The position numbers and the translations under genes are program-made. The notes beneath the pieces are model-generated. The model worked only from the letters and a program-made list of their open reading frames with translations, did not search any database and was not told the DNA's origin. From Macrostomum lignano (Eukaryota), in contig NIVC01001847.1 of assembly GCA_002269645.1 (NCBI GenBank), positions 1-64,000 of the forward strand: 64,000 bases of DNA, read 5' to 3'. Positions 23,101 through 53,050 of the stretch are shown here, piece after piece. How positions within the stretch are numbered: position 1 is the stretch's first letter; every line of letters starts with the position of its first letter.

Positions 23101-24538
23101 TCAAGTTGAGATGCGAAGAGGAAGACATGAACAATTGAGCGAAATGATGAAGCAAGCCCTGAACGTTCTCACTAATGTTCTCGAGCAGTTGTACGTCAGA
23201 GCCGATCAGAACGAGCGTGAACTTTTGTTCCGCTACTTGACTGCGGACTTCAAGAAGGATGAAGTGAGCGGTCCGAAGTTTCAGGCTCCGTTAAAAAAAT
23301 TCGTCGATAAAAAGGGCAAAGTTGTGGCTCCGTTTTCGGGCCCGGCGGAATGCTTCTCGGTCATGCAGCTGGTCGACACAGTCGATTGCGACGAGCTGTT
23401 TGCAACCAACTGCCTCAGCAGCATGATCGACGAACAGTGGAAGAAACCGCCTCCTCTGTCGTGGCGTACAAGCAGTAGCAGTCAACCGTGCTGCCCGAGC
23501 TTCAATAGCAGTTGCAGTCCTGGCAGCCGACCTGACGGAGTCCCTAGCTTTTTATTGTCAGTTCGATTTCGAGTCTGGATTCACATGGTCTTCTTCCTCT
23601 TCTTTCTGTGCTTCTTCTCCTGGTACGTAACGGATTTTGGCCAGTCGTTGAAGTCGCAGGCCGCGGCTGTGCACATTGTTGATGCAGTCATGTGGATGTT
23701 CGCTTTATCATTCGCCACGCAGGAGATAAATGACATGGTTAATAGGGGAGAACTCAAAGATACCTACGCTTGGGGAAGGCATCTGAAAGTACCCAGGTAC
23801 TTCACAGATTTATTTAATTATTTTGATCTGGCCGCAATCTTACTGCTGTTGGCTGGGCTCATACTCAAAATAGTGAGCACGGGAGGCGATACAACCAGCC
23901 TGCACAATGCCCAAGTAGTACTGAGCGCATCGTTTCTGCTCTGGGGATTTCGGTCGGTATCCCTGCTTAGCTACTTCAAGGTCACTGGACCAAAAATATC
24001 GATGCTGAAAAGCCTTCTATTAAGCGACTTGGCCCCATTCCTGATCATAATGCTTGTGCTGGTCTATTCGTTTGGCATATTCTACGTGAACTTGCTATTT
24101 CCCGTGACCCTCTCTACTGCGAGCATTTTACGCGACTCGGAGTCAATAGCCAAGCAAGTGTTCTCCCTGCCGGTCTCGCTGGCGTTCGGCTTCTTTGAAG
24201 GCGCCGAGAGCGTAGTGTGCAACGGGTCCAGACAGACTCTGGAGGCGTGCTCAGACCATGCCGGCTACCGGGCGTACAGCGGCCTGCTAATGTTCCTCTA
24301 CTTGCTAATCGTGAACATAGTGATGTGGAACCTGCTAATTGCACTGTTTAACCTGACAGTCACCAGCATGGACACCAAAGCAGAGGTGATTTGGCGTAAA
24401 AATCTGTACGAGATGCTGGTCGAGTTTTCCGAGGTCAGCCCGTTTCCACCGCCGTTTTCGTTTCCTCATTACATTTGCAAGCTGGGGCGGTACGCGTGTC
24501 GGCGTCTGGAGAACCGTCGTTCGGTTCAACCGGAAGAG
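20195..24538 (+). CDS. TRP cation channel, exon 1: about 18 ankyrin repeats plus 6-TM TRPM-like pore and TRP box (reading through the donor gives the 1468-aa ORF ending at 24601)
   Basis: Repeated TAVHLAA/TPVHRAA ankyrin motifs; hydrophobic S1-S6; GPKISML..DL, NIVMWNLLIALFN, IWRKNLY..EF and PFPPPF motifs; strong acceptor and Kozak-like context before the ATG. Confidence 0.92.
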
Positions 24539-25488
24539 GCAAGTACAATCAACACTTTGAATTATGATTTAAAAGACCATGCAAATTTTGCTGTGGGCTG
24601 ATTTTCCGCTGCAAATGCAAAGGTAAGGAAGCTTCCAGTTTTTTAGCACTAAATTCCCAATGTATCACCTTCTGGGCTTACGAATTCCAAATGAGGCGCA
24701 AAGCTGACTATGAACATGTTTCGTTTGAGATGCACTCATAAATTTATCAAGCCGTTTTTCATGAAATACTACCGGGAGACCGGCAAACATGTAAAGTTCC
24801 TTTTGGCGAAGTGTCTGTTGTTCCTGTCTCTTTAACGGTAGAACTACCAAGGAGGGGACCCTTGCAAATTTTTCGTTGCGCTGGAATGACGCAAACCAGG
24901 CACTGGAATTTCAAGTGCTTCAAATTTCTAAGCACTCTCTCAAGCATTCAGTCGTCTTCCAGACGCCGTCGCCTGCTTTACCGGTCTGTAGCTATCAAGC
25001 GACTGTGGACACCCAATTGTGAATTTCTTTGTTGTCTCTGGTCAAGCCCCGGTGTTCTTGAATTTCGTGTGCCAGAGCTGTGACTCCGTTCCGGCGCGCA
25101 GCAAAAAAACTGTTCCCCTTTTTTGGTCGTTCAATTAACGGGCGGAAATGGTTGTAAATTTCCTACTGTTAATGCACTTCTTTAGGATTATTAGCGGGTA
25201 CTACGTTCCATAGACCTATTCAGCGCCAGGCAAAAGAAGTAAAAATTTGTCAAATATTTGTTTAGAAAACACAACCTGTACTCTTGAGCGCTGCCATTCT
25301 CCGAATAATATTTTTCCTTAGACTTTTCTCGACGTCAACTCGACGTCGACGTCAACGTCGATGTCGACGACGAAGTATCGTGTTGTTAATTTTACTGTCG
25401 ATTATCGATAGAAATAAGTACCTTAACAGTTTTCGACGAATCTTACACTTAAATGGTAACAGCTTTCATCTTCTCGCAATGAATTTAG

Positions 25489-32903: not shown

Positions 32904-33515
32904 TGCTTAGTAATAATTTATCAGTTAATTTTTAGCAAACTAAACAAATAAAAGTAAAAAAATATTTTTTTAATGCTAACATTTTTGCCATTAACAAGAG
33001 TTAAGATTTTTATTAATGGTGCCTAACACTACCTGCTAAAGGGAAAACTTTTTTTACCTTTGTATTTGGCTTCTATTGTTTCTATTGGAGATAGATTTAT
33101 GTTTTTATCCTCCTCTAATAAGAATCCTAGCTATGCGCTTGATAGCCATAAAGCCATTTTATAGTTTACTAGTTGCTAAAATTGTTTATAAGAATAGACA
33201 ACAAAGTTGAAAAATCAATCAATAAATTGAACTGACAAATTGATATACCATTTAGCCAACTATCTCCTATATAAAGAAGTAAGAATATGTTAATAAATTA
33301 TTTGAAAAGTCTTAAATATTTAGTTTATTTTTTTTAAATCAAATAGTTTGATTAATACCATTATGAAAAAGTAGTCAATGACTTTCTATAATATTTTTAT
33401 GATCTTTTTAAATTATCCATTGATTGATTCTAGCCATCTTGTTAAAATCTTATTTTTTTCATTTAATTTACCATTGACTATACAAGTTTTTAGCTATCTT
33501 ATGATACCCAAGTTA

Positions 33516-34344
33516 CGAGGGGTGTCCCAAAAGTTCCCGGAATGTCTAACGTAACTCTTCAACAGAGCCATGAAATTTCATGCCCATGGTGTCAAATGAA
33601 AGGAAATTTTGTCACAAAGAATACAAAGTTAAAATCATGTTGATATCTTTTCTTATTCAAGAGCTACAGCAAAAAACTTGCACAAAGGTCAGGGGTAGTG
33701 TTACACAACCTCAACAATCTATGGCAATAATTTTTTCATCTCCATTTTTGGAGTTTTTCATTTTGAATTCATTCACAGCAAACTGGCCATCTCTAAAGCG
33801 TTCAATCCATCCGTAAACTGCAGTTTTTTTCAGGCTGTTCTCACCGTGGATGGAGAATAAGTGGTCAGAAATCTTGGCTCCACTCCATCCTACTGACCAA
33901 AGGGCAAAAACTTGACTTCGCTGACTTTCAAGGCTCTAAAGAGAACTCATTTTCGCAAAGAAATTTCAAGTTGAAAGCAAGCGCTTGGTGCGAATTATCT
34001 GCACTCGCGCAAAAGCTCAGATTAGCTTTATGAGCATTTCTGCTTTTTTCCATAGACACTACCATGTCTTTCTGACACGTCAGTAGCACGAATTCAAAAT
34101 GAAAAACTCCAAAAATGGAGATGAAAAAATTATTGCCATAGATTGTTGAGGTTGTGTAACAATACCCCTGACCTTTGCGCACGTTTCTTGCTGTAGCTCT
34201 TGAATAAAAAAAGATATCAACATGATTTTAACTTTGTATTCTTTGTGACAAAATTTCCTTTCATTTGACACCATGGGCGTGAAATTTCATGGCTCTGTTG
34301 AAGAGCTACGTTAGACATTCCGGGAACTTTTGGGACACCCCTCA
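33516..34344 (-). mobile_element. Non-autonomous Tc1/mariner deletion derivative with 255-bp TIRs
   Basis: Inverted repeats 33516-33770 and 34090-34344; TA TSD; internal minus-strand HTH remnant FALWSVGWSGAKISDHLFSIHGENSLKKTAVYGWIERFRDG. Confidence 0.92.
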
Positions 34345-34624
34345 TATAATGCTAATGAACTTATAAACTTATGAACAGCAAAGGAATATGGAACAGGTAT
34401 AGGCTAAGTAGTACAAAATTAATAAAGTATATAAAAAAAGCCTAGGAAATCCTTTTAGTAGCAGAAAATGCCAAGGCTTAGCTTTGCAAGCAGATGGGTT
34501 TTAGCCACAATAGCAAGACTAGTAACAGTGGCTTAAACATACCCATTCCAAAAAAGTTTAAATAGAAGAATAGAGAATCAATTTATCATATCCTATTGCA
34601 GTGACAATTGCCATACTTTTTTAC

Positions 34625-34825: not shown

Positions 34826-35436
34826 TTTTGCTAAAAGCAATCTGTCTACTTTTGTCTCATTAGGTTAAAATAGGCCCCTATTTGAAGTTTTTAACTCTAA
34901 AAACAATATGAATAACTCAACATATTTATTGTTATATAAATTCTAACTTTTTACTTAATTTTATTCTATCTAAATGGTATTTGTTGTTTGATTTTGTCTA
35001 AGCTATTTTTAGTACTATATTAGAGATTTAGTATATTTAGATTAATTATTTCTATTTTTGGTGGTCATACTGGTAGTTAGGTGGTAAGGGCTAAAGTTAA
35101 GATTGAATGTTTTATCACTTTTAAAGAGCTCTTAGGTCCCTATAAAGATTTGAAGACTTAGGAAACAGAGACTTTTGATGCCACAATAGTGTGTATATGC
35201 ATAGTATATTAGCCTAACATATATGCATAGGTAGTCTATTTGTCTATAGAGCAAGGTAGGTCACCCAAAAAATAGATCAAAAGGCCATATCTAGTGTACC
35301 CTTGTATAGTGTGGCATTGGTCTTGCTACCTAGATTGCTACATACTCTGAATGCTACATGCAGCATGGTCGCAAGCATAGCATTCAGTTGCCTCTTCAAG
35401 GCATCTATCATAGTTTAGGTCTCAGTGTAATATATG

Positions 35437-36173
35437 TGTCCTAGGGGTTACTTCTGCCTCTATTAATTATCTCACAATGCCACCAAAAGCTGTCGTAGGG
35501 CTCTTAATTAATCCTTTGTCTAGCCTTACTTGCTGCCACAAAGCTATTTCTTCTTAATAATTCTACTGGTTGTTAATTGTAATTCTACTGGTAGCGCATG
35601 TACTTCTATTGGTAGCGTATGTACTTCTATTGTACTTTCGGGCCTGAGCGGTCTATTGGCACTGTCTATTCTATTCCTATGCTTCCCCTAATATTATTCT
35701 CTCAGTCCTGGGCGTTCCCTGGATCAGAGGGTCACAGCTTATGCTCTTTCTCTGCCCTGAGGCGATCTTTCCCTCGCTCTGAGGCGGTTCTCCTGCCCTG
35801 AGGCGAATTTACTATTACTGCCCTGAGGCGGTTTCTCGCTTGTAGCGGATCTCAATACTACTCCCGATTTGGGGTTTTTACTATAGAAATGAATAAGACA
35901 CTCTGAACAATTTTCTGATCAAGTTTTTAGCTACTGTTAGAACACACGAAAAGCACAAGTTGATTTCTTGGCCCACTCGGGGCTTCTATTTATACTAGAG
36001 TCTCTCATCAAGTCAAACAAATAATTGTGAAAAAATATTTTTGTAAATCACAACATTTAAACAAAAATACTAGTAATTTCTTTTTAGCGCGGATTTGAAC
36101 TAAAGTTTCTAAGAAAACGAGTTACTATTAGCACTATCGTACAGTATCATACTATTATTAATGCACTGTCTCA
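35437..36173 (-). repeat. 3' LTR
   Basis: No difference from 43795..44531 found on manual comparison. Confidence 0.97.
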
Positions 36174-36185
36174 GCTGCCTTCCCT
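36174..36185 (-). other. Polypurine tract (AGGGAAGGCAGC)
   Basis: Immediately precedes the 3' LTR on the minus strand. Confidence 0.8.
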
Positions 36186-36667
36186 AAACGCAAGTTACGA
36201 AAAACAAAAATTTTACAAACAAAAGATGAAATTTTTGGCGTGAGTAAATTGCTCAAAATGCATAAACAAAGGCATAGGCTAAGCAATAATTGTCAGGCAA
36301 AATAAGCTGTATTCATACATAAATTTGTAATAAACAAGGCAATGAAGAAAAATGCTAATATGCAGACAACAAAATTATACAAATGTGAGCTATAAAAGGA
36401 AGGTAGCAAAGTGAACAGCAAAAACTACTGATAAGGCATGTGCAAAAATGGATTTATAAAAGCAATGTATCAAGGCAATGATTAAAAATATACAGTAACG
36501 ATAACTACTAATAATAGTATATAAAAGATGAAATGAAAGCAATATGATTATAGCAATGCAATAGTCAATAGTTAATAGTATGCAGAATAAAAAGACAAAC
36601 TATGAAAGCAGCACAACAATATAGGCACTAGAATAAAAGCATGTCAGTTAATTTCGCATGTTACCGT

Positions 36668-37897
36668 TTAGAAATTGCAGTTTCTGGGAAGGTCCCGGAA
36701 TTCCGGCCAGCCCATCTGCGTGAAGAGCCACCTCAGCTCAATATTCACCAGTTGACGCTGGAAAGGCTGTCGGCTGGCATTGATGTCTCCTCGGACTTGG
36801 TCGGCCACGTACTGCAGAATGGCGAACAATTCGCCGCGCTGATAGCGAGCGCGCAGCTGCCGAAGTCCTGGCCAGATGTATGCGCGTTGAGGCAGCGCTT
36901 GGTCAAGCCTCAGGTGAGCGATGCGCATCATATACGTGCGAATGCCATACATCACCCGCTCCAGCGGGGTGCCATGCATGTCCATCAGTTGCTGCGCCAC
37001 CTCTCGATACGATCTCGTCGGCTGCTGTGGCGCAGGAGGCGGCTGCGGCTGCGGCGTTGACTGTCGTGGCGGCTGCTGCGGTGCTTGCGGCTGACGTGAT
37101 GACGATGGCTGACTTGGCGGTGCTGGCGGTCGTTGCTGAGGCGAAGCTCGGCGTCGCGGTGGTCGATCTGCTGGCGGGTTCGCCAGTTGTACCGTGCGCT
37201 GTCCTTCAGCAGCACACGTCTTGAACACGATTGATTTCACTGGAGCCTTCGCCTGGGCTTCCAGGATAGCGGCGCGCTTCGCCGGTATTGGCTCTGGTCC
37301 TGGCGGTTGGTTTGGCGGTGGCCTCTTCGCGGTTCCTGAGACAGCTCGTGGCCTGGTCGGGTTCCGCAGCGGAGCCTCGCCGATGTCTGGGACTGCGACT
37401 GATGGTCCTGCCGCCTGCTGAACAGATGCTGACTGTTGGATTGGCTCGGTTATTGGCGGCTGATCCGTCAAAGCTGCTGGCTGTTGAGCTGCCGGAGCTG
37501 CTGGCTGCTGAGCTGCCGGAGCCGGAGCTGCGGGCTGTTGAGCTGCCGGCCGAGCTGCTAGCTGTTGAGCTGCCGGAGCCGGAGCTGCGGGCTGTTGAGC
37601 TGCCGGCCGAGCTGCTGGCTGTTGACCGACGATTTGCTCGGCGGCTTGCTCTGCGGCCGGCTCTAGATTATCCATGGACTCATCTAGTCCTAGGAAGTCC
37701 TTAAGAAACTCGTCTAAGTCGTCGTTCATGATTTCTAACCTCTTTAATCGCAATAGTCTAGATAATTGTTCTCGGCCTGAGGTGTGATCGACGGGTCTGG
37801 GGAGCTGTGGGTGTCCGATTACGTATCTGAAAAACTGGACCGCATCTTCGTGTTCGCACGAGTGGGGGTTTAGCAAATTTCTAACGGGCTCGCTCAT
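36668..37897 (-). CDS. Gypsy ORF3, 409 aa, unknown function, not Env-like
   Basis: Intact ORF between pol and the PPT; helical/acidic N-terminus, P/Q/A-rich centre, about 110-aa globular-looking C-terminus; no signal peptide or TM segment visible. Confidence 0.85.
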   Translation of the reverse strand: MSEPVRNLLNPHSCEHEDAVQFFRYVIGHPQLPRPVDHTSGREQLSRLLRLKRLEIMNDDLDEFLKDFLGLDESMDNLEPAAEQAAEQIVGQQPAARPAAQQPAAPAPAAQQLAARPAAQQPAAPAPAAQQPAAPAAQQPAALTDQPPITEPIQQSASVQQAAGPSVAVPDIGEAPLRNPTRPRAVSGTAKRPPPNQPPGPEPIPAKRAAILEAQAKAPVKSIVFKTCAAEGQRTVQLANPPADRPPRRRASPQQRPPAPPSQPSSSRQPQAPQQPPRQSTPQPQPPPAPQQPTRSYREVAQQLMDMHGTPLERVMYGIRTYMMRIAHLRLDQALPQRAYIWPGLRQLRARYQRGELFAILQYVADQVRGDINASRQPFQRQLVNIELRWLFTQMGWPEFRDLPRNCNF

Positions 37898-38125
37898 TGG
37901 CTCACACCGTTACTAAGCGTTGCTAGGATGTTTATGCGGAACGAGTTTCGAACAATACCTGCACAATTCTCTATACTCTACTGTTAGTAATGCGCAAAAC
38001 ATTTTTATTTAATACTGTATATGCAAATTTAATATTTTTGTATTTTTATAAATTTTATGATTTTTACTTTTTATGAGTTTTTTATATTGAGTCTATTTAC
38101 ACATTTTTACATGGATTCGGCTTCA

Positions 38126-41100
38126 TCACTTTCGGTAGTGTGAGTAACGCCTCCGGGGAACAAAGCCTGTTGCGACTGAGTTCTCTCGGGGTCTCAAATT
38201 ATATTGATGTCTTTGTTCGGCTCTTTCATTCTCACCTATCTCTAATGCGTCATCTTCCTCAGCTAACTCAGTTCTTTCACTGTCTGTTGACTCATCTTCT
38301 ATCTCATTCTGCTCAATTTCCTCTTGCTTAACTTCTTCCTCAATTGGCTCGATCTCTCTTGCTCTCCACTGAATTCTTTCGTCTTCCGAACTGTCAGTTT
38401 CTATTATTGGCTCTAAATGATTTTTCTTACTAATCTGTTGCCTTCCCTTATTTTTCGGCTCTCTCTTTTTCTGTTGTTCTCTCTGCCTTCCCCTATTTGT
38501 AGGTTCCGTCTCTTTATTTGGTTCATTCGGCAAATCTATTTGCGAGTTGGGTACTGGAGTGAGGTTGTTTCGATGTACGAGCATCTTCTCGCCAATCCTT
38601 ACTCCGTCTATTTCTCGCTGTACTCGAAATACTGTTTCGGAAAGTCTCGCAAGGACTCTGAATGCTGCTCTTTTCTTGCGGTGAAATTTATGGCTTTCTT
38701 CACTGTGTAACTGCGGATTGTTAATCAATGCGAGGCATCCAACCGGTACATGCTTCGGTGGCTTGTTCTCAGCATTTTCCTCCTTTCTACGGTCCTTTAC
38801 CTTCTCTAGCTTCTTTTGCACGAGTTTCTGTGCTTCTTCGAGCCTTTCAGCATGGTTTAGCACATAGCTCGGATAATCGTGATACTGCTTTGGCCTTCGA
38901 ATAATACTGTCTATCCTAAGATCTGCCTCCCTACCAAATAGCAGGTAGTGCGGCGTGAATCCGGTGGTCTGGTTCACACTAGTGCGCACAGCTACCAGAG
39001 CTGCGGGAATTAGCAAATCCCAGTCGGAATGATCTTTCTCTACTAGACAAGTTACTATTGACTTTATTTGTTTATTGAATCTTTCGACTAGTCCGTTACT
39101 TTGTGCGTGATACGGTGTGGTGCATGTATGCTTGATGCCATACATCCTACAAAATGCTTGGAACTGACGGCTGACGAATGTCTTGCCATTGTCAGTGTGG
39201 ATCCACTGGCATTGTCCGTATTCGCTAAAGATCCTTTCTTGTATGATCTTAATCACTGTATCCGATTTCTGGTTTCGCACTGGAAACGCAAACGGAAACC
39301 GAGTGGTGCTATCTACTACTGTTAGTACGTAGCGATGACCTCTTCGACTCTCTTTTGAGATCGGTCCAATCAGATCAATATGGATCCTATGAAACGGTTC
39401 GCATATTGGAAAGGACTGCACTGGCGCCTTCACCTTATTTCCTGCCTTACTCTCCAAACAAGGAATACATTCCGAAATATACTTCTCTACTGCAGTTGCT
39501 AGCCCTGGTCGCCAAAATCGATCGCGTACACGCTGAAGTGTTTTATCACGACCTAGGTGACCTGCGAGAGGACTGTCATGCAACTCTCGGAATACCTCTT
39601 TCTCTATATTCTCTGGCAACACGACCTTTCGTGTCCCGTCTTCGTCTATGGTCAATAACTCGTCTTCTAGCTTCATCTGCTTATAGAACTTTAACATCTG
39701 CTTCAACTCTCTAGTCGCATCTTCTGGCAATTTCGGCTCTCGGATACTCTGCTCCTTCCAGGCTATCAGCGTCCTCATAGAAGGGTCGTCACGCTGAGCT
39801 GATGTCAGCTGCTCCTTCTTAAGCGGGACGAAGAGATAGTCGGTTAGGAGTTTCCGACAAGCGGTCTCACTAACGTTTTCTTCCGCATCCTCATACACTT
39901 CTTCATCATCAGCGAAGTAATCGCTGGCGTCCTCATACTCTTCTTCTTCATCTTCGAAATATTCTCTTGCATCTTCGTACTCTTCATCGTCTTCTACTTC
40001 TTCTCTAATTGGATCAGTCTGACAGCTCTGGTGCTTACAGCTTGAGATATTGGTCTGACTTCGGTTTACCGTAACGGTAGGAAGTACTGGACCTATCTCA
40101 GCTTTAGTGCACTTTTCTGCCTTAGTCTCCTGATTATCTTCTAATCTTTCTGCGGGTCGTCTGGATAGTCCGTCTGCATTGGTGTGTTTAGCACCGCTGC
40201 GGTGTTCAATGTCATACTGAAACTCACTTAATCTCTCAATCCATCTACCGAGGATTCCCTGCGCTTCAGTCTGGCGAAGTAGCCATAGGATAGCGCGATG
40301 ATCTGTTCTTGCCAGGAATCTCTTTCCGATGAGATAGAATCGGAAGTGTTTCATTCCGTCAACTAATGCTAGCAATTCTTTTCTCGTGATTGGATACCTC
40401 TTTTCTGATTCTTTCATGGCTCTGCTAAAGTACGCGATGGGTCTTTCGACTCCATCGGATTGTATCTGACCTAAGCAGGCTCCGATTCTATCATCACTCG
40501 CATCAGTGTCAAGCACCATTCGAACTCCTTCGTTGTCTGTGAACTCTGGGTAGGCTAAGACTTCGGTTGATGTCATTTTCTGCTTTAGTAGCGCAAAGGC
40601 CTCATCATGGCTCTTAGTCCACTTCTCTTTAAAATTCTGAATTCCCTTCTTAGTTAGCTGGAAGAGCGGGTGCGCTGCTTCCGCGTAATTCTTCACGAAC
40701 CTACAGTAATAGTTACAGAGACCTAGGAAGCTCCTTAATTCTTTAACGTCCTTAGGCGTCGGCCATGACTGAATTGCTTCTATCTTAGCTGGATCTGTCT
40801 TAATTCCTTCTCTACCAACTATGTGTCCTAGATATTTAAGCTCTTTTTGAAATAGATTACATTTCTTCGGCCTTAATTTTAATCCGGCTGTTACTAGTCT
40901 CTGGAACACTTCTCGTAGGTGATCCAGGTGATCCTCAAATTTCGTTGAGTAAGTTACTATGTCGTCAATGTACGACATGGCGAATTTATGTTGAATCCCC
41001 ATCAATACTAGGTTCATTAGTCTCTGGAATGTTCCAGGTGCATTAGATAGTCCCTGCGCCATGACCTGATACTCGAACTGTCCCCTAGTCAAAGTCGAAA

Positions 41101-42649
41101 ATGCTGTCATGAATTTATCCTCTTCCTTAATTGGTACCTGCCAATAACCTGAATTTAAGTCTAAACTACTGAAATATTGACTTCCCGTTAGATGAGAGAA
41201 AGTTTCCTGAATATTCGGCAACGGATACGGATAATAGTTAACTCGAGAGTTCAAGACTCTGAAATCACTGACAATCCTAATTGTTCCATCTTTCTTAGGC
41301 ACTATTACTAATGGCGTCGAATAAGTGCTATAGCACGGCCTTATTAAATTTTTAGCGAGCATATCGTCTAACTGTTCGTCTACTTGCTTCTGCAGATGTG
41401 GTGGTATTCTGCGAGTAGGTATTCTGACTGGCGTCGTATCCTTCAGCGAGATTTCATGGGTCACTAGATGAGTGAGGCCCATCTCCTGGCTTGTCTGCGA
41501 GAATGCTTCCCTATTCTCTTTCAGCAGCTCGACTACCTTTTCTTTCTGCTCTGATGATAGCTCATCTGAGATGTTAATCTCCTGAATCCATTCATCAGTA
41601 TCAGCAGTTTCAGCGCATTTCGCGGATTTAACTTGTCCGGTGTCATTCTTGGTAACGAAGTACGTTAGTTCTTCGGCTTTTAATGGCTTGGCAATGCCTA
41701 CCATTGCTGATTTCCTAATTACTACGTCGTTGTTCTGCCTATTAATCACTTCTACCACACCAGTTCCATCACTCATCGTTAATAAAGTTGGAACCATATC
41801 CAGTGTGTCATCTTTTACTGAGATATGTCCTTTAGTGGTCTCAATCATCATTGGCGTGCCGAAGTTCATTTCTGCTCGTTTAGCTAGTTTGACTGGTATT
41901 CTTAAAGCACTATTAGCTGGCACAACTACCTTGTCGTGACAGTAGACTCGGCACACTCGTACCGGCAATTTAGTAAACTGCATCGGAATGCAAACTCCGG
42001 TTTTTAAAATCATCATCCCTTTGTCAAAGCTCATACTCTCGCAAAAGTTCATAAAGAAATCCATTCCTAGGATATCATCACACTCATGGTTGCACAGCAG
42101 GAAGTCGGTCACAATTTCTACTTCTCCGAACATTATCTTTATTGTCACTTCTCCTTCGATTCGCACAATTGATCCATCGAATGTGGTCACTCTTTGATCA
42201 GATGGCCTGATCTCTTGTTCTCTACATACTCTTCTCCAAGTACTTTTACTTAGAAAGTTACGACCGGCTCCTGTGTCTAACAGAAAGCGAATATTCTGCT
42301 TGCGGATCTTTCCGTCAATGACTGCTTCTCGGCCTTTCTTCTCTGTGCCGGCATCTAAACTTGTCTCTTCTTCTGCACTTTCATTCAGCTTGACGTACTC
42401 TTCTGGCTTCGGAGTACTTTTCTTGTGTAAGCAATCAGGTGCACGCGTAGTATTTACATTCGGTACTGTATGTGCATTCGCATATTTTTTGTTGGGTTTT
42501 CTAAACTTATTATAATTTTCGCATGATTTGTACTTGTACTGCTTATTAACTTTGTACGCATTATTTACAAATTCAGAGGCCTGAATTTTGCTCTGGATTT
42601 CGCTAGAGGGACGTGGCCTCGTTATTCGGCCCTCGCTTCTCAGTTTCCC
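38126..42649 (-). CDS. pol: Pol polyprotein (protease, RT, RNase H, integrase) in the -1 frame relative to gag
   Basis: Frame open from the slippery site; LLDTGA protease, YIDD RT, DASD RNase H, HHCC (HDSPLAGH...CIPC) and DDE (IDLIG, TDNG, VERFN) integrase. Confidence 0.97.
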   Translation of the reverse strand, partial: GKLRSEGRITRPRPSSEIQSKIQASEFVNNAYKVNKQYKYKSCENYNKFRKPNKKYANAHTVPNVNTTRAPDCLHKKSTPKPEEYVKLNESAEEETSLDAGTEKKGREAVIDGKIRKQNIRFLLDTGAGRNFLSKSTWRRVCREQEIRPSDQRVTTFDGSIVRIEGEVTIKIMFGEVEIVTDFLLCNHECDDILGMDFFMNFCESMSFDKGMMILKTGVCIPMQFTKLPVRVCRVYCHDKVVVPANSALRIPVKLAKRAEMNFGTPMMIETTKGHISVKDDTLDMVPTLLTMSDGTGVVEVINRQNNDVVIRKSAMVGIAKPLKAEELTYFVTKNDTGQVKSAKCAETADTDEWIQEINISDELSSEQKEKVVELLKENREAFSQTSQEMGLTHLVTHEISLKDTTPVRIPTRRIPPHLQKQVDEQLDDMLAKNLIRPCYSTYSTPLVIVPKKDGTIRIVSDFRVLNSRVNYYPYPLPNIQETFSHLTGSQYFSSLDLNSGYWQVPIKEEDKFMTAFSTLTRGQFEYQVMAQGLSNAPGTFQRLMNLVLMGIQHKFAMSYIDDIVTYSTKFEDHLDHLREVFQRLVTAGLKLRPKKCNLFQKELKYLGHIVGREGIKTDPAKIEAIQSWPTPKDVKELRSFLGLCNYYCRFVKNYAEAAHPLFQLTKKGIQNFKEKWTKSHDEAFALLKQKMTSTEVLAYPEFTDNEGVRMVLDTDASDDRIGACLGQIQSDGVERPIAYFSRAMKESEKRYPITRKELLALVDGMKHFRFYLIGKRFLARTDHRAILWLLRQTEAQGILGRWIERLSEFQYDIEHRSGAKHTNADGLSRRPAERLEDNQETKAEKCTKAEIGPVLPTVTVNRSQTNISSCKHQSCQTDPIREEVEDDEEYEDAREYFEDEEEEYEDASDYFADDEEVYEDAEENVSETACRKLLTDYLFVPLKKEQLTSAQRDDPSMRTLIAWKEQSIREPKLPEDATRELKQMLKFYKQMKLEDELLTIDEDGTRKVVLPENIEKEVFRELHDSPLAGHLGRDKTLQRVRDRFWRPGLATAVEKYISECIPCLESKAGNKVKAPVQSFPICEPFHRIHIDLIGPISKESRRGHRYVLTVVDSTTRFPFAFPVRNQKSDTVIKIIQERIFSEYGQCQWIHTDNGKTFVSRQFQAFCRMYGIKHTCTTPYHAQSNGLVERFNKQIKSIVTCLVEKDHSDWDLLIPAALVAVRTSVNQTTGFTPHYLLFGREADLRIDSIIRRPKQYHDYPSYVLNHAERLEEAQKLVQKKLEKVKDRRKEENAENKPPKHVPVGCLALINNPQLHSEESHKFHRKKRAAFRVLARLSETVFRVQREIDGVRIGEKMLVHRNNLTPVPNSQIDLPNEPNKETEPTNRGRQREQQKKREPKNKGRQQISKKNHLEPIIETDSSEDERIQWRAREIEPIEEEVKQEEIEQNEIEDESTDSERTELAEEDDALEIGENERAEQRHQYNLRPRENSVATGFVPRRRYSHYRK

Positions 42650-43665
42650 TGGTTATTCGGGCGGTTCTGCATCTGCGGAGCGTTCTGCTTGGCACTCCTG
42701 CACTGCTTTGCAATGTGGCCGATCTTTCCGCAGTTATAGCAAGTCTGCGGCTGTTGTCTCGGCTGACCCTGGTTCGGGTGCTGCTGCCGTGCGAACATTT
42801 GCTGTCGCGCCTGCGCTCCATTGCCATACTGTGGCGGAACGGGCTGCGGCTGCTGCGGCTGGTATCTTTGTGGATACTGCCTGGCTGCCTGAGCGTACGA
42901 ATAATTCTGCGAAAACTGCTGCTGATTATTCTGCATCTTCTCCTCTCTTAGCTCCTGCAAAGCTCTCTTCTGCTGTTCAATCTCGAACTTCTGCTTCCTA
43001 ATGATCTCTTCCAATCTTTCCTGTTCAGCCTTCCTCTGCTGTTCTTGTTCTTCCTCGCTCTTAGCTACTCTCATGCCTGAATTCCTGCGTGACATGTTCC
43101 AAGCTGCCTCCATCCTTCTCAGCATCCTTCTGGCTTCTTGCAGATTAGCTGGCTGAGCAAAGATCAGTTTCTCACGGGTTTCAGGTGGAACTCTCACACC
43201 CTTGATGAACTGTTCCACGATCTCTTCTTCCCGCTGTTCCACAGTCATGTTTGGGAAGGCTCGCGAAGCTAGCTCAATCAGGCAATCAGTGTACGATTCT
43301 ACTGACTCATTCCTGCCTTGCATTCGGCCTCTAAATTCTTCCCTAAACTCTGCTGAACTGCCAATTCTGCCAAAGCGTTCTACAAGTCTTTCTTTAAATT
43401 CTTCGTACTCCAGATCATCTGGGAGGTTCAAACGCTGAACTGCTGCGAATGCAGTAGCCAGGTCGAGGTTCGCGAGAAGCTCTTGCTTCCGGTTATCCTC
43501 TTCGATACCCTCAGCTTCACAGCGCTGGTCGAAGGCAGTCAACCAGATCCTAATATCTTGACCTGGCGTGAATTTCTGAATTTTCACATGCCTTTGTGGT
43601 CCTAACTCTAACCTGTTTCTTAGCTCTTCAGCTAGCATCGCAATCGCATCATTTGCGTTGGCCAT
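42640..43665 (-). CDS. gag: Gag, 341 aa
   Basis: Retrotransposon gag-like region (QGRNESVESY); CCHC knuckle CYNCGKIGHIAKQC. Confidence 0.96.
   Translation of the reverse strand: MANANDAIAMLAEELRNRLELGPQRHVKIQKFTPGQDIRIWLTAFDQRCEAEGIEEDNRKQELLANLDLATAFAAVQRLNLPDDLEYEEFKERLVERFGRIGSSAEFREEFRGRMQGRNESVESYTDCLIELASRAFPNMTVEQREEEIVEQFIKGVRVPPETREKLIFAQPANLQEARRMLRRMEAAWNMSRRNSGMRVAKSEEEQEQQRKAEQERLEEIIRKQKFEIEQQKRALQELREEKMQNNQQQFSQNYSYAQAARQYPQRYQPQQPQPVPPQYGNGAQARQQMFARQQHPNQGQPRQQPQTCYNCGKIGHIAKQCRSAKQNAPQMQNRPNNQGN
42643..42649 (-). other. -1 ribosomal frameshift slippery heptamer G GGA AAC
   Basis: X XXY YYZ pattern directly before the gag stop; pol frame is -1 and open; GC-rich stem follows. 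Confidence 0.85.
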
Positions 43666-43771: not shown

Positions 43772-43790
43772 ATCCTTTACGCTGCCACCA
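43772..43790 (-). other. Primer-binding site, tRNA-Leu-like (TGGTGGCAGCG...)
   Basis: 4 nt inside the 5' LTR end; complementary to ...CGCTGCCA-CCA, a typical tRNA-Leu 3' end. Confidence 0.8.
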
Positions 43791-43794
43791 AAGT

Positions 43795-44531
43795 TGTCCT
43801 AGGGGTTACTTCTGCCTCTATTAATTATCTCACAATGCCACCAAAAGCTGTCGTAGGGCTCTTAATTAATCCTTTGTCTAGCCTTACTTGCTGCCACAAA
43901 GCTATTTCTTCTTAATAATTCTACTGGTTGTTAATTGTAATTCTACTGGTAGCGCATGTACTTCTATTGGTAGCGTATGTACTTCTATTGTACTTTCGGG
44001 CCTGAGCGGTCTATTGGCACTGTCTATTCTATTCCTATGCTTCCCCTAATATTATTCTCTCAGTCCTGGGCGTTCCCTGGATCAGAGGGTCACAGCTTAT
44101 GCTCTTTCTCTGCCCTGAGGCGATCTTTCCCTCGCTCTGAGGCGGTTCTCCTGCCCTGAGGCGAATTTACTATTACTGCCCTGAGGCGGTTTCTCGCTTG
44201 TAGCGGATCTCAATACTACTCCCGATTTGGGGTTTTTACTATAGAAATGAATAAGACACTCTGAACAATTTTCTGATCAAGTTTTTAGCTACTGTTAGAA
44301 CACACGAAAAGCACAAGTTGATTTCTTGGCCCACTCGGGGCTTCTATTTATACTAGAGTCTCTCATCAAGTCAAACAAATAATTGTGAAAAAATATTTTT
44401 GTAAATCACAACATTTAAACAAAAATACTAGTAATTTCTTTTTAGCGCGGATTTGAACTAAAGTTTCTAAGAAAACGAGTTACTATTAGCACTATCGTAC
44501 AGTATCATACTATTATTAATGCACTGTCTCA
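43795..44531 (-). repeat. 5' LTR
   Basis: Starts TGAGACAG and ends GGACA on the minus strand. Confidence 0.97.
44346..44352 (-). promoter_or_regulatory. LTR TATA box (TATAAAT)
   Basis: About 180 nt into the 5' LTR; mirrored at 35988-35994. Confidence 0.6.
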
Positions 44532-44657
44532 TATGTATATACAACAGTTATAGAAAGTTTACTAGCTATGGATGTAGATATAGATAGAGTATGAGAAAAA
44601 TATGGTGAAAATATAGAGAGAAAAATGGTATAATTTATGCTTTTTAACTATTTAATA

Positions 44658-45631
44658 CTTCGGGTGTGTCATAAGTAATGTCACTGATGTGAAAACAGAC
44701 GAACTTGCAATCGCGGATTAATAAAACTGTAGCACTCAACAACATAGAGTCCCCCAATATCAATCACCCTCTGGCAATGCTCATACAGCTTGTCCACCTC
44801 AGCCTGCAGGTGTTTTTCCTCCAACTGCCATAACCAGTGCAACGCGGCCTGTTTGACCTCTTCATGGTTTGCAACTCTTCTTGGAAAAGTCAGCCTTCAG
44901 CCATTTGAACAGGAATCTCTTGCAAAAGTTGAAGTCCGGGCTGTAGGGACTCTGTCAGAGCATCACTCGCCGTACAGGCAGAAAATTCGAAACAGCCTTC
45001 AGGTGTGCAGCCGTGCGGTGTCCATCTGCCACAGAACTTCGTCCCGGTGACATGGATTTGACTGGAGAGTGCGCCAGAGGTCTCCAGTGTGCCGGACAAA
45101 GTCGATAAAATACTGGCCATCGACCTTGGTGTTCGGTGGAGTTGTGCAGATGGAGACTCGTTTGTTTGGCGTGAAGGCTACCAGCAGCATGGTCTTCTTG
45201 TCCAAGATGGACTTCCTAGTCACCATCGGCCTGGAGTCTCCAGCTCCCAGCCAGCAGCGATTGTCTGCCTTGCTGCCCTTGCCATCCAGGTGGAGCCAGC
45301 TTTCATCCTCAGCAACCAGGCAGTTTAGGATGTCATTCAAGCCCCGGCTGCTAAACACCTTGTGGATCTGCTTGGTGCGGGCGTCTTGTTGAGATTCATG
45401 GTGATTTTTGTTCGCTGCATAGACGGTTTTTCATCGCGTTGCACTTGCTAAATCTGCTTGGCGTATTCTTGCGATAGCTTGGGCCATAAACAACCTTTGC
45501 ACGTCTCAAATGCACTGCTATTGCTTCACTAAGTATACTTTGCAGCTACACAGGTACACTACCCACAAGTCCATGTGCCTACATATTTTAGACAGAGGCC
45601 TGCAGTGACATTACTTATGACACACCCGAAG
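44658..45631 (-). mobile_element. Degenerate mariner element, 974 bp, with internally deleted transposase
   Basis: Perfect 29-bp TIRs, TA TSD; remnant motifs AEDESW, WQMDTAR and PYSPDFN; frameshifts and stops. Confidence 0.92.
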
Positions 45632-45830
45632 TATCTATAAGATTGCCCTGCAGTTGGACTAAAAATATGCTCATAACTTGGAGTAGATTTCAATGCCAAA
45701 GATTTATTGCTACAATTGTTATTGTAAATGAAAGCCACCCCCTAGCTCTTTCCTTCCCTTCTTTTCTTTTCTAAATCTCTACACTACAACTGTTGTACTA
45801 TCTTGCTTCTGTCCATGCAAACTGCAGATA

Positions 45831-46358
45831 ATGCCCCGGGTATCTGTCGCCCGCAACTTTTGTCCCAGGCAATTCTGCCGCACCCGAGCGGCAGCGGCGC
45901 AGTACTTGCGTCATATGCGGTCACACGGAATGGGCTGCGACTCGGAGACAGAGGAGGCGGCTGCGACCAACTCAGAAGCTGTGAGAGCGGCGGTCGAGCA
46001 GGTCGCGTCTTGCAATGAGTCAGCGATGCAGCCGTGTGCAGCCGGCAGTTCTGCAGTGATGAAGCGTCACGAGTGCGAGTCAGTCGAGAGGACCCCAGCT
46101 TCAAAGAGTGCTGCAACACGACACCGTCGAGCTCAGGGCATCGAGAGACCATTCCAGTGCGACACTTGCCAGAAGAAGTTCATCAGAAAAAGCTACCTAA
46201 AGGCTCACATTAGTGCAGTGCACATAAAGGCGAAACCGCACAAGTGCAAGGTGTGCGGCAAGAGATTTAGTGACAGCAGCAGCCACATTAGGCACTCCAG
46301 GGTGCACACAGGAGAAAAGCCATTCGAGTGCAAGGTGTTCTGCAAAATATTCAGTTAA
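45831..46358 (+). CDS. C2H2 ZNF paralogue A: atypical finger plus 2 intact fingers; third finger broken by a C>F change and a stop (truncated or pseudogene)
   Basis: CDTCQKKF...HISAVH, TGEKPF linker; cluster homology. Confidence 0.7.
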   Translation: MPRVSVARNFCPRQFCRTRAAAAQYLRHMRSHGMGCDSETEEAAATNSEAVRAAVEQVASCNESAMQPCAAGSSAVMKRHECESVERTPASKSAATRHRRAQGIERPFQCDTCQKKFIRKSYLKAHISAVHIKAKPHKCKVCGKRFSDSSSHIRHSRVHTGEKPFECKVFCKIFS

Positions 46359-47078
46359 CCCAGCGATCTGAAGAGGCACTCCAAGCAGCACATTGTTTAA
46401 TGAATATTCAACTTTGCGCTCCGTGATTGCCACTACGTCTGGGTCCTTACTGTGCGCCAGGCATTTTTAATTCACTAGCAGTAGATCAGCAGCTTTTTTG
46501 GCTGTACGTATTAAGAACTGTCCCAAAAATGTCAATGAAAGCGGATTCAATAGCCAGTTAGTTACAGCATCCAATGACCTGTCAGTCTCAGTATCTCAGT
46601 AACTGATTGGTTTCCAGCATTTTCAGTTTTTCACTTCATTACTTATTGTATTAGTACTCACTCATTTTCAGTACTCATTTGAATTCTTCTAACTTTTTGC
46701 AAAAATTCTCTAATCAGAATGTTTTAATCATGATAAATTGCTCATCAGTGTAAATTTAACCATGCACGTCATGTCGTTTAGCAGCAACATTTTCACTCGG
46801 TTAAATCCATCATCAATTGGTTGTCTTAAATTCAAGTAAAGCATGCATGGGATTTTTATCACTTTCATAAAATACAAAATTCTGCTTTTTATTAGTCAAT
46901 ATAACCCAGCAATTGTCTTTATGTTTTCGATATTGGGGATGTTCATTTCCTTTAGATGTCTTTCCATTCCGGATCACAAAGTGACGAAGTCCCTACCGCT
47001 CCGCATTGCAGCTCCGGCAGAGACTGACTTCGAGCATCGGCATCTCCGCACAGATCGCAGCCCCACAGTTTCTCAGAG

Positions 47079-48377
47079 ATGCGCCGGGGCTCTGTCGCCT
47101 GCCCCTTTTGTCCCAGGCGGTTCTGCCGCACCCGATCGGCAGCGGCGCAGTACTTGCGTCATGTGCGGTCACACGGAATCGGCTGCGACTCGGAGCCAGA
47201 GGAGGCGGCTGCGACCAACTCAGAAGCTGGCAGAGCGGCGGCGGTCGAGCAGGTCGAGTCTCGCAATGAGTCAGCGATGCAGCCGTGTGCAGACGGCAGT
47301 TCTGCAGTGACGAAGCGTTACGAGTGCGAGTCAGCCGGGAAGACCCGAGCTTTGAACAGTGCTGCAACACGGCAACGTCAAGCTCAGGCTGTCGAGAGGG
47401 CGTTCCAGTGCAACACTTGCCAGAAGAAGTTCACCAGAAAAAGCCACCTCAAAGCTCACATTAGTGCAGTGCACAAGAAGGCGAAACCGCACAAGTGCAA
47501 GGTGTGCGGCAAGAGATTTAGTGACAGCAGCAGCCTCATTAAGCACTCTAGGCTGCACACAGGAGAAAAGCCATTTGAGTGCAATGTGTGCGGCAAGAGA
47601 TTCAGTCAAGCATGGAGCCTCTCTTCCCACTCAAGGCTGCACACAGGAGAAAAGCCATTTGAGTGCAAGGTGTGCGGCAAGAGATTTAGTGTCAGTAGCA
47701 GCCTCACTAAGCACTCTAGGCTTCACACAGGAGAAAAGCCTTTCGAGTGCAAGGTGTGCGGCAAAAGATTCAATCAAGCATGCAGCCTCTCTTCCCACTC
47801 AAGTCTGCACACAGGAGAAAAGCCTTTCGAGTGCAAGGTGTGCGGCAAGAGATTTAGTGACAGCAGCAGCCTCACTAAGCACTCTAGGCTTCACACAGGA
47901 GAAAAGCCTTTCGAGTGCAAGGTTTGCGGCAAAAGATTCAATCAAGCAAGCAATCTCTCTTCCCACTCAAGGCTGCACACAGGAGAAAAGCCATTTGAGT
48001 GCAATGTGTGCGGCAAGAGATTTAGTGACAGCAGCAGCCTCACTAAGCACTCAAGGCTTCACACAGGAGAAAAGCCATTTGAGTGCAATCTGTGCGGCAA
48101 GAGATTTAGTGACAGCAGCAGCCTCACTAAGCACTCAAGGCTTCACACAGGAGAAAAGCCTTTCGAGTGCAAGGTTTGCGGCAAAAGATTCAATCAAGCA
48201 GGCAGCCTCTCTTCCCACTCAAGGCTTCACACAGGAGAAAAGCCGTTTGAGTGCAATGTGTGTGGCAAGAGATTTCATGTAAGCAGCAACCTCACTAAGC
48301 ACTCCAGGGTGCACACAAGAAAAAGCTATTCGAGTGCCAGGTGTTCTGCAAAAGATTCAGTTAAGGCAGCAATCTGA
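47079..48377 (+). CDS. C2H2 ZNF paralogue B: atypical finger plus 11 fingers, frameshifted 12th
   Basis: Tandem CxxC-x12-HxxxH fingers with TGEKPF linkers; the upstream ATG (46956) frame has a TGA at 47025. Confidence 0.9.
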   Translation: MRRGSVACPFCPRRFCRTRSAAAQYLRHVRSHGIGCDSEPEEAAATNSEAGRAAAVEQVESRNESAMQPCADGSSAVTKRYECESAGKTRALNSAATRQRQAQAVERAFQCNTCQKKFTRKSHLKAHISAVHKKAKPHKCKVCGKRFSDSSSLIKHSRLHTGEKPFECNVCGKRFSQAWSLSSHSRLHTGEKPFECKVCGKRFSVSSSLTKHSRLHTGEKPFECKVCGKRFNQACSLSSHSSLHTGEKPFECKVCGKRFSDSSSLTKHSRLHTGEKPFECKVCGKRFNQASNLSSHSRLHTGEKPFECNVCGKRFSDSSSLTKHSRLHTGEKPFECNLCGKRFSDSSSLTKHSRLHTGEKPFECKVCGKRFNQAGSLSSHSRLHTGEKPFECNVCGKRFHVSSNLTKHSRVHTRKSYSSARCSAKDSVKAAI

Positions 48378-48759
48378 AGAGGCTCTCCAAGCAGCACATT
48401 TTTAACGAATATTTAACTTTGCGCACCGTGATTGTAGAAATGGACACACGATCTTTGTTTTTCTGTGCTCCAGGCGTTTTCAGTGTACGAGTACTTGCAA
48501 TCGTTTAACAGCTTTTTGTTTCTATGTAATTATGCTTTGTCTTGAATCTTTCCTTTAGGATGCATGAGGAAGTTGATACACTGATGAGCTTTTGCTGCCA
48601 AATGTTTTCAGTTTTTTCTCCAGTAGTCACCTTGCGTACTGTACGAGTACTCGGCACTTATGCTACTTCTCGTTTGACTTATTTTAATTTTTGCTTAAAA
48701 AATTCTGCGCACAGTAGGCACGAATATTATAAACTGATAGTTCGGTGATTGTCAGCTTT

Positions 48760-49240
48760 CTAATTAATGAGTTAGCGAAGTCACAAATTGCCAAAGTTAG
48801 GTCGATCTGTAGTTGTCCGATAGCTTTACAACTTGACCAGAATGCAACTCGGCTTGGTGGCTGAATCACTTGGTGCCCTCCGAGTAACCTGTTTCGATGC
48901 ACTTTAATCATAGTGCTCATATGCTGTCTTAATTGTGGAATTTTGAAAAAAATTGCATGCTTTCGGGAATCGAGTCAAGTCTGGTGTTAGCGTGGCGTTT
49001 TGCGAGGAATCTTTCTGTTTCTGCTGTTGGTTTTCTCTGCTGCTGTTTTGACCTTGAAAGACCTTCCAAGTGCTGTGAGCAGAATGGCGGTCTTCAGCTC
49101 GTCGCTTTCATTATCTCGCTTCGCGGCTGTGAGGGAGAGCGCGAAACCAGCAATTCATGTTTTCACTTCTTCATCTGTTCTCATCGAATCGATGGATGCT
49201 GGTGGCTTCAACTCTCCTGTATCAGCCAGCCATGTGTATC
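48760..49240 (-). pseudogene. Degenerate Ty3/Gypsy gag remnant
   Basis: IAGFALSLTAAKRDNESDELKTAILLTALG and LAICDFANSLIRK resemble Gypsy gag; many stops. Confidence 0.45.
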
Positions 49241-50238
49241 GAAGCGTCGGCTTTGAATTAGCTGAGTAGCGACTGAATGATGTATGCGGTTAAGGAGTTA
49301 ATCGTTAGCTGTGTTCCTCTGACACCATGCTGTTTGTTGTCGTGTTAGTAATGAAATCTCAAATCTATGGGCTTGTGTCTCCGATTAGCGGTTTTTCGCA
49401 TGAACACTTAAAGAGGACGGCTCAAAAATGAAAGTATAGAGCATAGTCGGGAGTGCTCAGTAGTCCCTGTCACAAGCTCTTTTTTCACATTGCGCAAGAC
49501 AGTACAGTTAATTAGCACTTGAGAGAATCCCTAGCTACATAAATATTTTACAATAGAATAATTGCTACCAGCTTCACCACCATCTAGAAATTGCACCTTT
49601 AAACTCTGAGTTGGCGCGTCAGCTTGTAGAAGCATTTGACATCGTGCATTCGTCAAAAATGCTGTCCCAGTAAAGTTCCAATAAGCCGGTCTCTCAGACA
49701 GCTGAGAAATGTTTAAATTCTGACACCAAATTTCGTTTTGATTGGCTGGCCTTTAGGCTTTGCTCGTCTTAGCCGGTGGGGCCGCCTACCCACCCTTTTT
49801 GTTACGGCTTTTTAGTATTTCGCTCCGGGTTTGCGCATCCACCTTAAATTGTTCAGTCGCGCAAAGTTGCAGTACAAGTGGCAGAAATCAATGGGTCCTG
49901 CCTGGCAGTCTAGCGATAATTAAATAAAAAACTGTTTATTTTGATTTAGCTAAAACCCCAATCCACACCCGGTAAAACCCGCTTTGGGTCACTATCTCTC
50001 ATGAGCCAAAGATTGCTTATCGGTTTAAATTTAACCATGCACGTACGCTCGTAATGTCGTTTAGCAGCAACATTTTCACTCGGTTAAATCCATCATCAAT
50101 TGGTTGTCTTAAATTCAAGTAAAGCATGCATGGAATTTTTATCACTTTCATAAAATAGAAAATTCAGCTTTTTATTAGTCAATATAACCCAGCAATTGTC
50201 TTTATGTTTTCGATATTGGGGATGTTCATTTCCTTTAG

Positions 50239-52316: not shown

Positions 52317-53050
52317 CTCTCCCTAGCCACCCTATCACTAACCCAACCCACCCTAAGACTCTCCCTAGCCACCCTATCACTAACCCAACCCACCCTAAGA
52401 CTCTCCCTAGCCACCCTATCACTCACCCAACCCACCCTAAGACTCTCCCTAGCCACCCTATCACTCACCCAACCCACCCTAAGACTCTCCCTAGCCACCC
52501 TATCACTAACCGAACCCACCCTAAGACTCTCCCTAGCCACCCTATCACTCACCCAACCCACCCTGAGACTCTCCCTAGCCACCCTATCACTCACCCAACC
52601 CACCCTAAGACTCTCCCTAGCCACCCTATCACTCACCCAACCCACCCTAAGACTCTCCCTAGCCACCCTATCACTCACCCAACCCACCCTAAGACTCTCC
52701 CTAGCCACCCTTTCACTCACCCAAACCACCCTAAGACTCTCCCTAGCCACCCCATCACTCACCCAAAAACCACCCTAAGACTCTCCCTAGCCACCCTATC
52801 ACTCACCCAAACCACCCTAAGACTCTCCCTAGCCACCCTATCACTCACCCAAACCATCCTAAGACTCTCCTTAGCCACCCTATCACTCACCCAAACCACC
52901 CTAAGACTCTCCCTAGCCACCCTATCACTCACCCAAAAACCACCCTAAGACTCTCCCTAGCCACCCTATCACTCACCCAAATCACCCAAAGACTCTCCCT
53001 AGCCACCCTATCACTCACCCAAACCACCCTAAGACTCTCCCTAGCCATCC
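52317..53050. repeat. 42-bp G/C-skewed minisatellite (ctctccctagccaccctatcactcacccaacccaccctaaga), about 17 copies
   Basis: Visible tandem array. Confidence 0.96.

Follow-up and report, generated by a model that had tools for sequence, protein, structure and literature searches.

The window analysed here is a stretch of 64,000 nt of Macrostomum lignano DNA (contig NIVC01001847.1), and all coordinates refer to it. On its minus strand lies a Ty3/Gypsy LTR retrotransposon, recognised by the TG...CA ends of its LTRs, a target-site duplication, a primer-binding site and a polypurine tract. The 5' LTR (43795..44531) and the 3' LTR (35437..36173), delimited by comparison of the pair, are identical (100%) across 737 bp, and the duplicated target site TATG stands at either end of the element (35433..35436 and 44532-44535); the element had been described as freshly inserted, and these features agree with that description. 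The primer-binding site (43780..43790), which we take to be of the tRNA-Leu type, adjoins the 5' LTR, and is also found beside the LTRs of most relatives. M. lignano Ty3/Mdg4 LTR elements have been assigned to the families Mag, CsRN1, Gmr1/Osvaldo and Mdg3/Micropia (PMC12801592); the supplements of that paper, including an alignment archive that is perhaps partly unreadable, gave no motif match that would place this element among Mag, CsRN1, Gmr1/Osvaldo or Mdg3.

The gag gene (42640..43665, minus strand) encodes 341 aa with a CCHC knuckle and is followed by a pol frame of 1508 codons (38126..42652, minus strand). Pfam identified zf-CCHC in gag and RT, RNase H and integrase in pol, with RT and RNase H ahead of integrase, and the DTG motif of the protease was recognised by eye. 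A slippery heptamer, G GGA AAC (42643..42649), lies in the overlap of the two frames at the end of gag, where a -1 frameshift into pol is likely. A stimulatory hairpin downstream of the heptamer was rejected, as folding there was no better than in shuffled sequences (z = -1.06). Beyond pol come the third reading frame, ORF3, and a U-rich 3' untranslated stretch (36174..36667, minus strand) ending in the polypurine tract. Partial repeats of the primer-binding site and LTR terminus, together with three TGCCCTGAGGC repeats, presumably AP-2-like, occur at the end of both LTRs (in the 5' LTR, 43795-43900 and 44110-44198).

Several other features were recorded in the window. A DNA-transposon-like element of 980 bp, bounded by 32-bp terminal inverted repeats that match perfectly (44655-45634), lies 120 bp from the 5' LTR, and the retrotransposon is adjoined by five or more duplicated blocks that contain C2H2 zinc-finger arrays made of 84-nt repeats (45700-61200). 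At 33514-34346, two 257-nt arms, 97% complementary and 319 nt apart, form a MITE- or foldback-like structure. On the plus strand, one uninterrupted frame (20195-24601; 1468 aa) encodes numerous ankyrin repeats together with an ion-transport domain; it is TRPA-like and apparently intronless.

The ORF3 frame and its predicted product

ORF3 was first read as a 409-codon ATG frame on the minus strand (37897 to 36668), beginning 228 nt past the pol stop. Codons 1-56 are conserved as DNA, but in sister copies they are interrupted by stops and by indels that shift the frame. In 21 of 21 aligned relatives, whose starts were picked by the analyst, an acidic motif equivalent to Met57 forms the start; the upstream ATG falls within a CCAAT box, and in just two of the ten lineages that have it does it lead in frame and without a stop into ORF3. 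Codons 1-56 are probably not protein, and the product would comprise 353 aa from the conserved Met57 (36668..37729, minus strand) rather than 409. The originally predicted ORF after pol is thus real, with a start that probably has to be moved. A longer form is possible, because the database gene model P0006, which represents a sister allele, begins at the upstream ATG and two lineages are open from there.

Four sequencing runs whose identity as RNA is a guess were compared with ORF3: contigs of X1, X4 and X9 covered parts of it with zero differences and those of X8 scarcely any of it, and no junction linking the 5' region to ORF3 was found, a result that demonstrates neither transcription nor a start site. 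GenBank models of M. lignano stem from transcript assembly (PMC5730564), and the presumed derivation of ORF3-matching accessions from it hints that the ORF3 region is transcribed, genomic and subgenomic RNA being indistinguishable. None of the gene ids of ORF3-homologous models appears in the heat-stress supplements of PMC12801592.

The predicted product is a largely disordered hub protein, with an acidic helix in its N-terminal part and a C-terminal domain of five helices; AlphaFold2 renders the rest as disordered, with short low-confidence helices. The N-terminal helix (37685..37729, minus strand), acidic, amphipathic and LxxLL-like, is a candidate activation or docking motif: six to nine of the first 20 residues are acidic in 21/21 relatives, 15/21 have an LxxLL-like match, and a helix at residues 4-12 was predicted with low confidence. 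In the centre (37226..37378, minus strand), alignment and model point to the motif PxRxxT(R/Q)P, present in 19/21 relatives, together with KR, a KRAA-type helix and a basic SxV; we take the KR...KR spacing to resemble a bipartite nuclear localisation signal. Both kinds of feature, the acidic LxxLL helix and the basic patch, occur widely among proteins and are non-specific. All motifs quoted in the original prediction, AKRPPP, PAKRAA, PPRRRA and QQPAA among them, are present in the translation; across the 21 relatives, the basic central motifs are kept, while QQPAA is allele-specific and PPRRRA is not conserved.

The C-terminal domain (36671..37015, minus strand), delimited by profile, AlphaFold2 model and fold searches, is predicted to consist of five helices (pLDDT 91.5, pTM 0.84) and has invariant D, P, L, E, W and W residues across the aligned relatives. 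It is mildly basic, with a net charge of +1 to +10 among relatives. About 112 aa are predicted to be helical with high confidence, matching the roughly 110-aa helical C-terminus first proposed. A homodimer prediction gave a score of 0.00; an alignment was not used, and this result says nothing either way.

Neither an envelope protein nor any other recognised family was found, as the original prediction had held. The maximum hydropathy over 19 residues (Kyte-Doolittle) is 0.63 in this ORF3 and 0.27-1.11 in the 21 relatives, none of which has a hydrophobic segment. An Env or fusogen was rejected for want of a transmembrane anchor, a hydrophobic signal (hydropathy and the acidic N-terminus) and a glycoprotein family match, and no viral glycoprotein fold matched at E ≤0.001 in BFVD or PDB, a lack that does not by itself speak against one. 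Pfam gave nothing for the protein (P0001) and nothing consistent across 27 C-terminal domains, and the best PDB sequence matches had E values of 0.84 and 0.12. Fold searches with the C-terminal domain were equally empty: the best Foldseek matches had E = 2.1 in PDB and 0.83 in BFVD, and VIA-align against 48,161 chains reached at best Z = 7.1 and nowhere ≥8, with generic helical bundles, a result that does not imply that the fold is new. The ESM Atlas gave no usable match. An enzymatic ORF3 (DEDDy exonuclease or GDSL esterase) was also rejected, as there is no Pfam match and the sole folded part is the 112-aa all-helix domain.

A profile search against 1.84 billion representative proteins returned eight, namely five M. 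lignano models, one unnamed protein and two weak matches in repeat proteins (P0010 and P0011), which were dropped as spurious; a host homologue was not among them. The unnamed protein, P0007, is ≤46% identical to anything scored in the genome searched (G000), and the family therefore reaches beyond that genome. Word-index searches found nothing for P0001 residues 290-409 or for A4, and two chimeric gene models for A1. P0006 appears by eye to be identical to the ORF of L061/L062. Three public models (P0004, P0005 and P0012) join ORF3 pieces to unrelated host or transposon sequence and are likely annotation chimeras.

Conservation, selection and exchange of ORF3

In G000, the whole ORF3 protein gave at least 114 matches (102 of 9067 candidates scored) and the C-terminal domain at least 150 (150 of 234 scored). 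From these lists, 80 loci were taken by hand to span subgroups, and 79 of them have the C-terminal domain in element context, the exception being L099, where there was nothing. For a check independent of ORF3, we used 40 of 99 RT matches, namely those outside the first set. Among relatives with RT ≥82% identical, 19 of 20 carry the domain after integrase, and the exception also lacks integrase; at about 75%, one of three carries it and the other two lack integrase. At 64-65%, 0/17 match the ORF3 profile; in 16 of them a different ORF of 183-285 aa directly follows pol, and the remaining one is truncated where its contig stops. The C-terminal domain of this sister ORF aligned with that of ORF3 over 79 columns (E = 0.0098, probability 4%), which leaves homology a weak possibility.

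The third ORF of the sister Gypsy clade (L134-L150, RT 64-65%; 236-285 aa) has a basic N-terminus, acidic helices, a conserved C-terminal domain and a motif that is presumably SIM-like; for this ORF there was no Pfam or database match. In two related elements (L131 and L132), a MULE transposase ORF occupies the place where integrase would sit.

ORF3 is conserved clade-wide under purifying selection. By an in-house Nei-Gojobori script applied to 46 whole-ORF pairs, which are not independent, dN/dS was 0-0.37 in 41 of the 42 pairs with synonymous changes and 0.73, on three changes, in the other; three further pairs were identical and one had a single non-synonymous change only. Comparison of this copy with the nearest open allele gave dS = 1.12 and dN = 0.27 for the C-terminal domain. 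Deep allele pairs are saturated, with apparent dN/dS up to 0.97 in some. Of 46 copies whose LTRs are ≥99% identical, 37 have an ORF3 frame that stays open between the conserved Met and the usual end; L102 is counted among these though it shows a shifted stretch. For the 21 autonomous copies in that set, the numbers with an open frame are 18 for ORF3 and 11 for pol; breaks in recent copies may be partly assembly errors. The version in this copy is a singleton, and its four closest relatives (74-82% identical) are all broken. Retention of the domain in 19/20 RT-selected relatives, dN/dS well below 1 and open frames in most recent copies accord with the conserved gene originally envisaged. Far more confidence attaches to ORF3 being a functional accessory gene than to any of the mechanisms proposed for it.

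The diversity of ORF3 is far older than that of the genes beside it. Many ORF3 versions occur in each of three separate RT lineages, inside which RT has 92-99% identity at the DNA level and the ORF3 domain mostly 52-74%. In 14 of 15 within-lineage pairs, RT dS was 0.03-0.35 and domain dS ≥1.36 or saturated, the pair L104/L105 showing the reverse pattern. The RT and domain trees differ in depth, and not clearly in deep topology. When the 76 domains are grouped by amino-acid identity, a 90% threshold gives 34 types and an 80% threshold 26; 17 of the 34 types have a member with LTRs ≥99% identical, and the L088 type has at least nine copies. From the persistence of many old versions in recent insertions we infer frequency-dependent selection.

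Exchange between elements has a fairly regular 5' limit. In 10 of 13 pairs, identity breaks at -119..-20 from Met, which coincides with the TATA position or lies slightly beyond it; the 3' limit is variable and usually takes in the 3' UTR and U3. The clustering of breakpoints may be mechanistic rather than selective, with the conserved element as the last homology island. L091 and L097, like L104 and L108, differ in little more than ORF3, which identifies ORF3 as the exchanged unit. Within these pairs, different versions have a common U3 (99% and 96% identical, respectively), and L091/L097 also have a common 3' UTR. A strict lock-and-key relation of ORF3 and U3 is doubtful, since different versions can have one U3.

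Among the loci taken, ORF3 is also carried by 25 short elements of about 5-6.5 kb without RT and integrase, with LTRs mostly 99-100% identical; where an autonomous partner was found, the ORF3-LTR part is common to both. These satellites encode a Gag-related protein of 191-197 aa, open in 20/25, for which dN was below dS in all nine measurable of 10 pairs. That pol has been dropped and ORF3 kept suggests a benefit to the carrying copy. The possibility that the satellites are spliced copies of the full element was rejected, as they have their own diverged backbone. The mini-Gag is 34-39% identical to the gag N-terminus, with a variant zinc knuckle and no Pfam match, and could be a capsid modifier or a copy-number control protein. 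The satellite loci are L031, L032, L046, L047, L050, L051, L054, L055, L058, L059, L061-L063, L065, L067, L068, L073, L087-L090 and L092-L095.

Putative internal promoter and U3 motifs

An internal promoter between pol and ORF3 is likely, judging by motifs over first-read codons 1-39 (37782..37903, minus strand): a CCAAT box (37893-37903), an element conserved in the alignment (37829-37855), a degenerate TATA position (37818-37826) and an initiator-like site (37782-37791). Across 20 lineages, TATAWA occurs at -135..-65 from Met in 11 (1.7 expected from shuffles), GCCAAT at -220..-150 in nine (0.7 expected) and the conserved element upstream of Met in 14 (0.05 expected); these expectations overstate the significance, because the windows were chosen after viewing the alignment and the lineages are related. 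In this copy, the CCAAT box and the conserved element are present and the TATA is degenerate; the L104/L106/L108 group lacks all three motifs. Spliced, env-like expression is disfavoured and the promoter reading preferred, because the acceptor-like sites of this copy (TACTAAC and TTTTTCAG) are not conserved across lineages.

The U3 region of the 5' LTR contains promoter motifs compared across LTRs (44344..44474, minus strand): TTCNNNGAA (44464-44474), TTCAAA with a CGCG element (44445-44457), TTGTTT(T)AA-type sites (44414-44423 and 44371-44379) and a TATA (44344-44352). We assume these to be STAT-like, E2F/CHR-like and forkhead-like sites. TTGTTT(T)AA was found in 16/18 LTRs (1.1 expected), TTCNNNGAA in 9/18 (1.4 expected), E2F-like sites in 8/18 (1.1 expected) and the TTCAAA-plus-CGC arrangement in 11/18 (2.2 expected), and a TATA box is common to the U3 regions. 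The TTCAAA-type hexamer alone is not enriched (12/18, 9.9 expected). As for heat-shock control, no canonical HSE was found in 25/25 LTRs.

Possible functions of ORF3

The original prediction proposed a nuclear regulator or silencing suppressor, a role that would fit the predicted anatomy. In the mechanism we favour, and hold to be about evenly poised between right and wrong, ORF3, transcribed from a promoter of its own, would act in the nucleus to activate the LTR or relieve its silencing, probably by overcoming the silencing that the host imposes. The CCAAT/TATA promoter between pol and ORF3 would yield a subgenomic RNA whose 5' end lies some 60-70 nt ahead of Met57, and the basic motifs would bring the protein into the nucleus. 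There, its C-terminal domain would dock at the LTR, more likely via a host factor on the common U3 motifs than at an allele-specific DNA site, and the acidic helix would recruit a co-activator. Counted in favour are the clade-wide position after integrase, purifying selection, the promoter motifs, the anatomy of the protein and the cassette pattern. Counted against it are a predicted C-terminal domain that resembles no known DNA-binding or chromatin fold, the degenerate TATA of this copy and the want of promoter motifs in L104/L106/L108; the U3 common to different versions argues against a strict lock-and-key form.

M. lignano piRNAs silence transposons (PMC4604429). If ORF3 RNA must be made first, rare sequence versions of it would escape piRNAs, and this we propose as the reason for the reshuffling of old versions; template switching at the conserved stretch beside the internal TATA could place them on the current gag-pol. 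The joint proposal, in which a Tas-like activator or anti-silencer is made first, dozens of ancient interchangeable versions persist because rare ones escape piRNAs and satellites with a mini-Gag keep the cassette for its benefit to the carrying copy, is offered as tentative and, taken whole, is doubtful.

Complex retroviruses, which place transactivators in this position, were the analogy first drawn, and the likely internal promoter would bring it closer than was then known. Foamy virus Tas combines an acidic activation region with a folded domain, and the conserved acidic helix of ORF3 is a candidate counterpart of that region. We know of no case in which Tas exists as many exchangeable versions on one gag-pol. 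Like tas, ORF3 is situated downstream of pol and ahead of the 3' LTR. In foamy viruses, tas is accompanied by an internal promoter (PMC7828637), the likeness here consisting in conserved CCAAT/TATA motifs alone. Unlike a foamy virus, the ORF3 element has no env, and LTR activation by ORF3 is hypothesised; unlike Tas, ORF3 has no Pfam or PDB sequence match and no fold match, so that the comparison concerns the way of working only.

Non-Env extra ORFs of LTR retrotransposons are a known category, few with a function, to which this family adds a new protein domain. Bdelloid rotifer LTR elements, likewise of invertebrates and modular, carry non-Env third ORFs, and their ORF3s comprise DEDDy exonucleases, GDSL esterases, Env and small membrane ORFs (PMC5408684); unlike these, the flatworm ORF3 is non-enzymatic-looking, disordered with a small helical domain and without a Pfam match. 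The env of Oikopleura Tor3b/Tor4b is also a third gene of a Gypsy-type element, with an internal promoter in pol or the post-pol gap (PMC4402516); it encodes a membrane glycoprotein, unlike ORF3, which lacks a hydrophobic segment and has a putative promoter. The VANC proteins of plant VANDAL elements are also element-encoded accessory proteins, fast-evolving and sequence-specific in anti-silencing according to titles cited in PMC13547354. VANDAL elements are, however, plant DNA transposons, VANC has a MAIN-related fold to which ORF3 shows no similarity, and no allele-specific target motif was found in ORF3 elements. A description of the ORF3 family was not found in the literature searched, repeat databases lying outside that scope, and a term search of the main text of PMC12801592 met no mention of an extra ORF, accessory gene or non-autonomous element. 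Nor did the literature searched report any LTR element of animals whose activator or silencing suppressor had been put to the test. The evolutionary signal is sharp, with old diversity all in one cassette and gag-pol homogenised. M. lignano offers transgenesis, LTR reporters, RNAi and a piRNA pathway (PMC12801592, PMC4604429), and a retrotransposon-encoded switch against piRNA silencing is a directly testable question there.

The many old versions in recent copies (34 types among 76 domains, 17 with a member at LTR ≥99%) would also be expected of a counter-defence protein that disables a host restriction or small-RNA factor, PIWI or other, away from the promoter in a protein-level arms race. 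A hub-like architecture with short motifs, a U3 not tied to the ORF3 allele and a host with an active piRNA pathway (PMC4604429) are consistent with it. We nevertheless consider it rather unlikely: selection on the protein within alleles is purifying, ORF3 has no similarity to known suppressors, and the satellites, which could obtain a diffusible general suppressor in trans, have dropped pol but retained ORF3.

The U3 motifs bear on a further reading, in which ORF3 manipulates the host cell, driving it into or keeping it in a proliferative state with the LTR active, like the hub proteins of small DNA tumour viruses. E2F-like sites and the TTCAAA-plus-CGC arrangement exceed expectation, and the protein is disordered with several conserved short motifs; LxCxE is absent in 21/21 relatives, however, the hexamer alone is near its expected count, and the many alleles are left without a reason, which makes this improbable. 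A role in RNA or particles, as export adaptor, packaging factor or nuclear-entry helper acting through a signal in its own 3' UTR, has similarly little probability. It would suit the usual divergence of the 3' UTR together with ORF3, the retention of both in satellites and the spacing in the N-terminal helix of this copy, which we take to be export-signal-like. Conservation does not extend to the final hydrophobic position of this spacing, though, L091 and L097 combine a common 3' UTR with different ORF3s, and the C-terminal domain has only a mildly basic charge.

The restriction of deep multi-allelic diversity to a single cassette also resembles phage immunity regions, where comparable multi-type diversity is known. 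ORF3 versions might accordingly be immunity or incompatibility types, each repressing or excluding elements of its own type so that rare types spread. This is very improbable, as no allele-specific target was found, the U3 motifs are common and U3 is identical between some versions, and the L088 type has reached its many copies. That ORF3 is a captured host fragment or neutral passenger without a role in the element would agree with its expression not being demonstrated here, but is so unlikely as to be largely refuted: no host homologue was found among the 1.84 billion representatives, nearly all loci lie in element context, and the frame is retained clade-wide under purifying selection.
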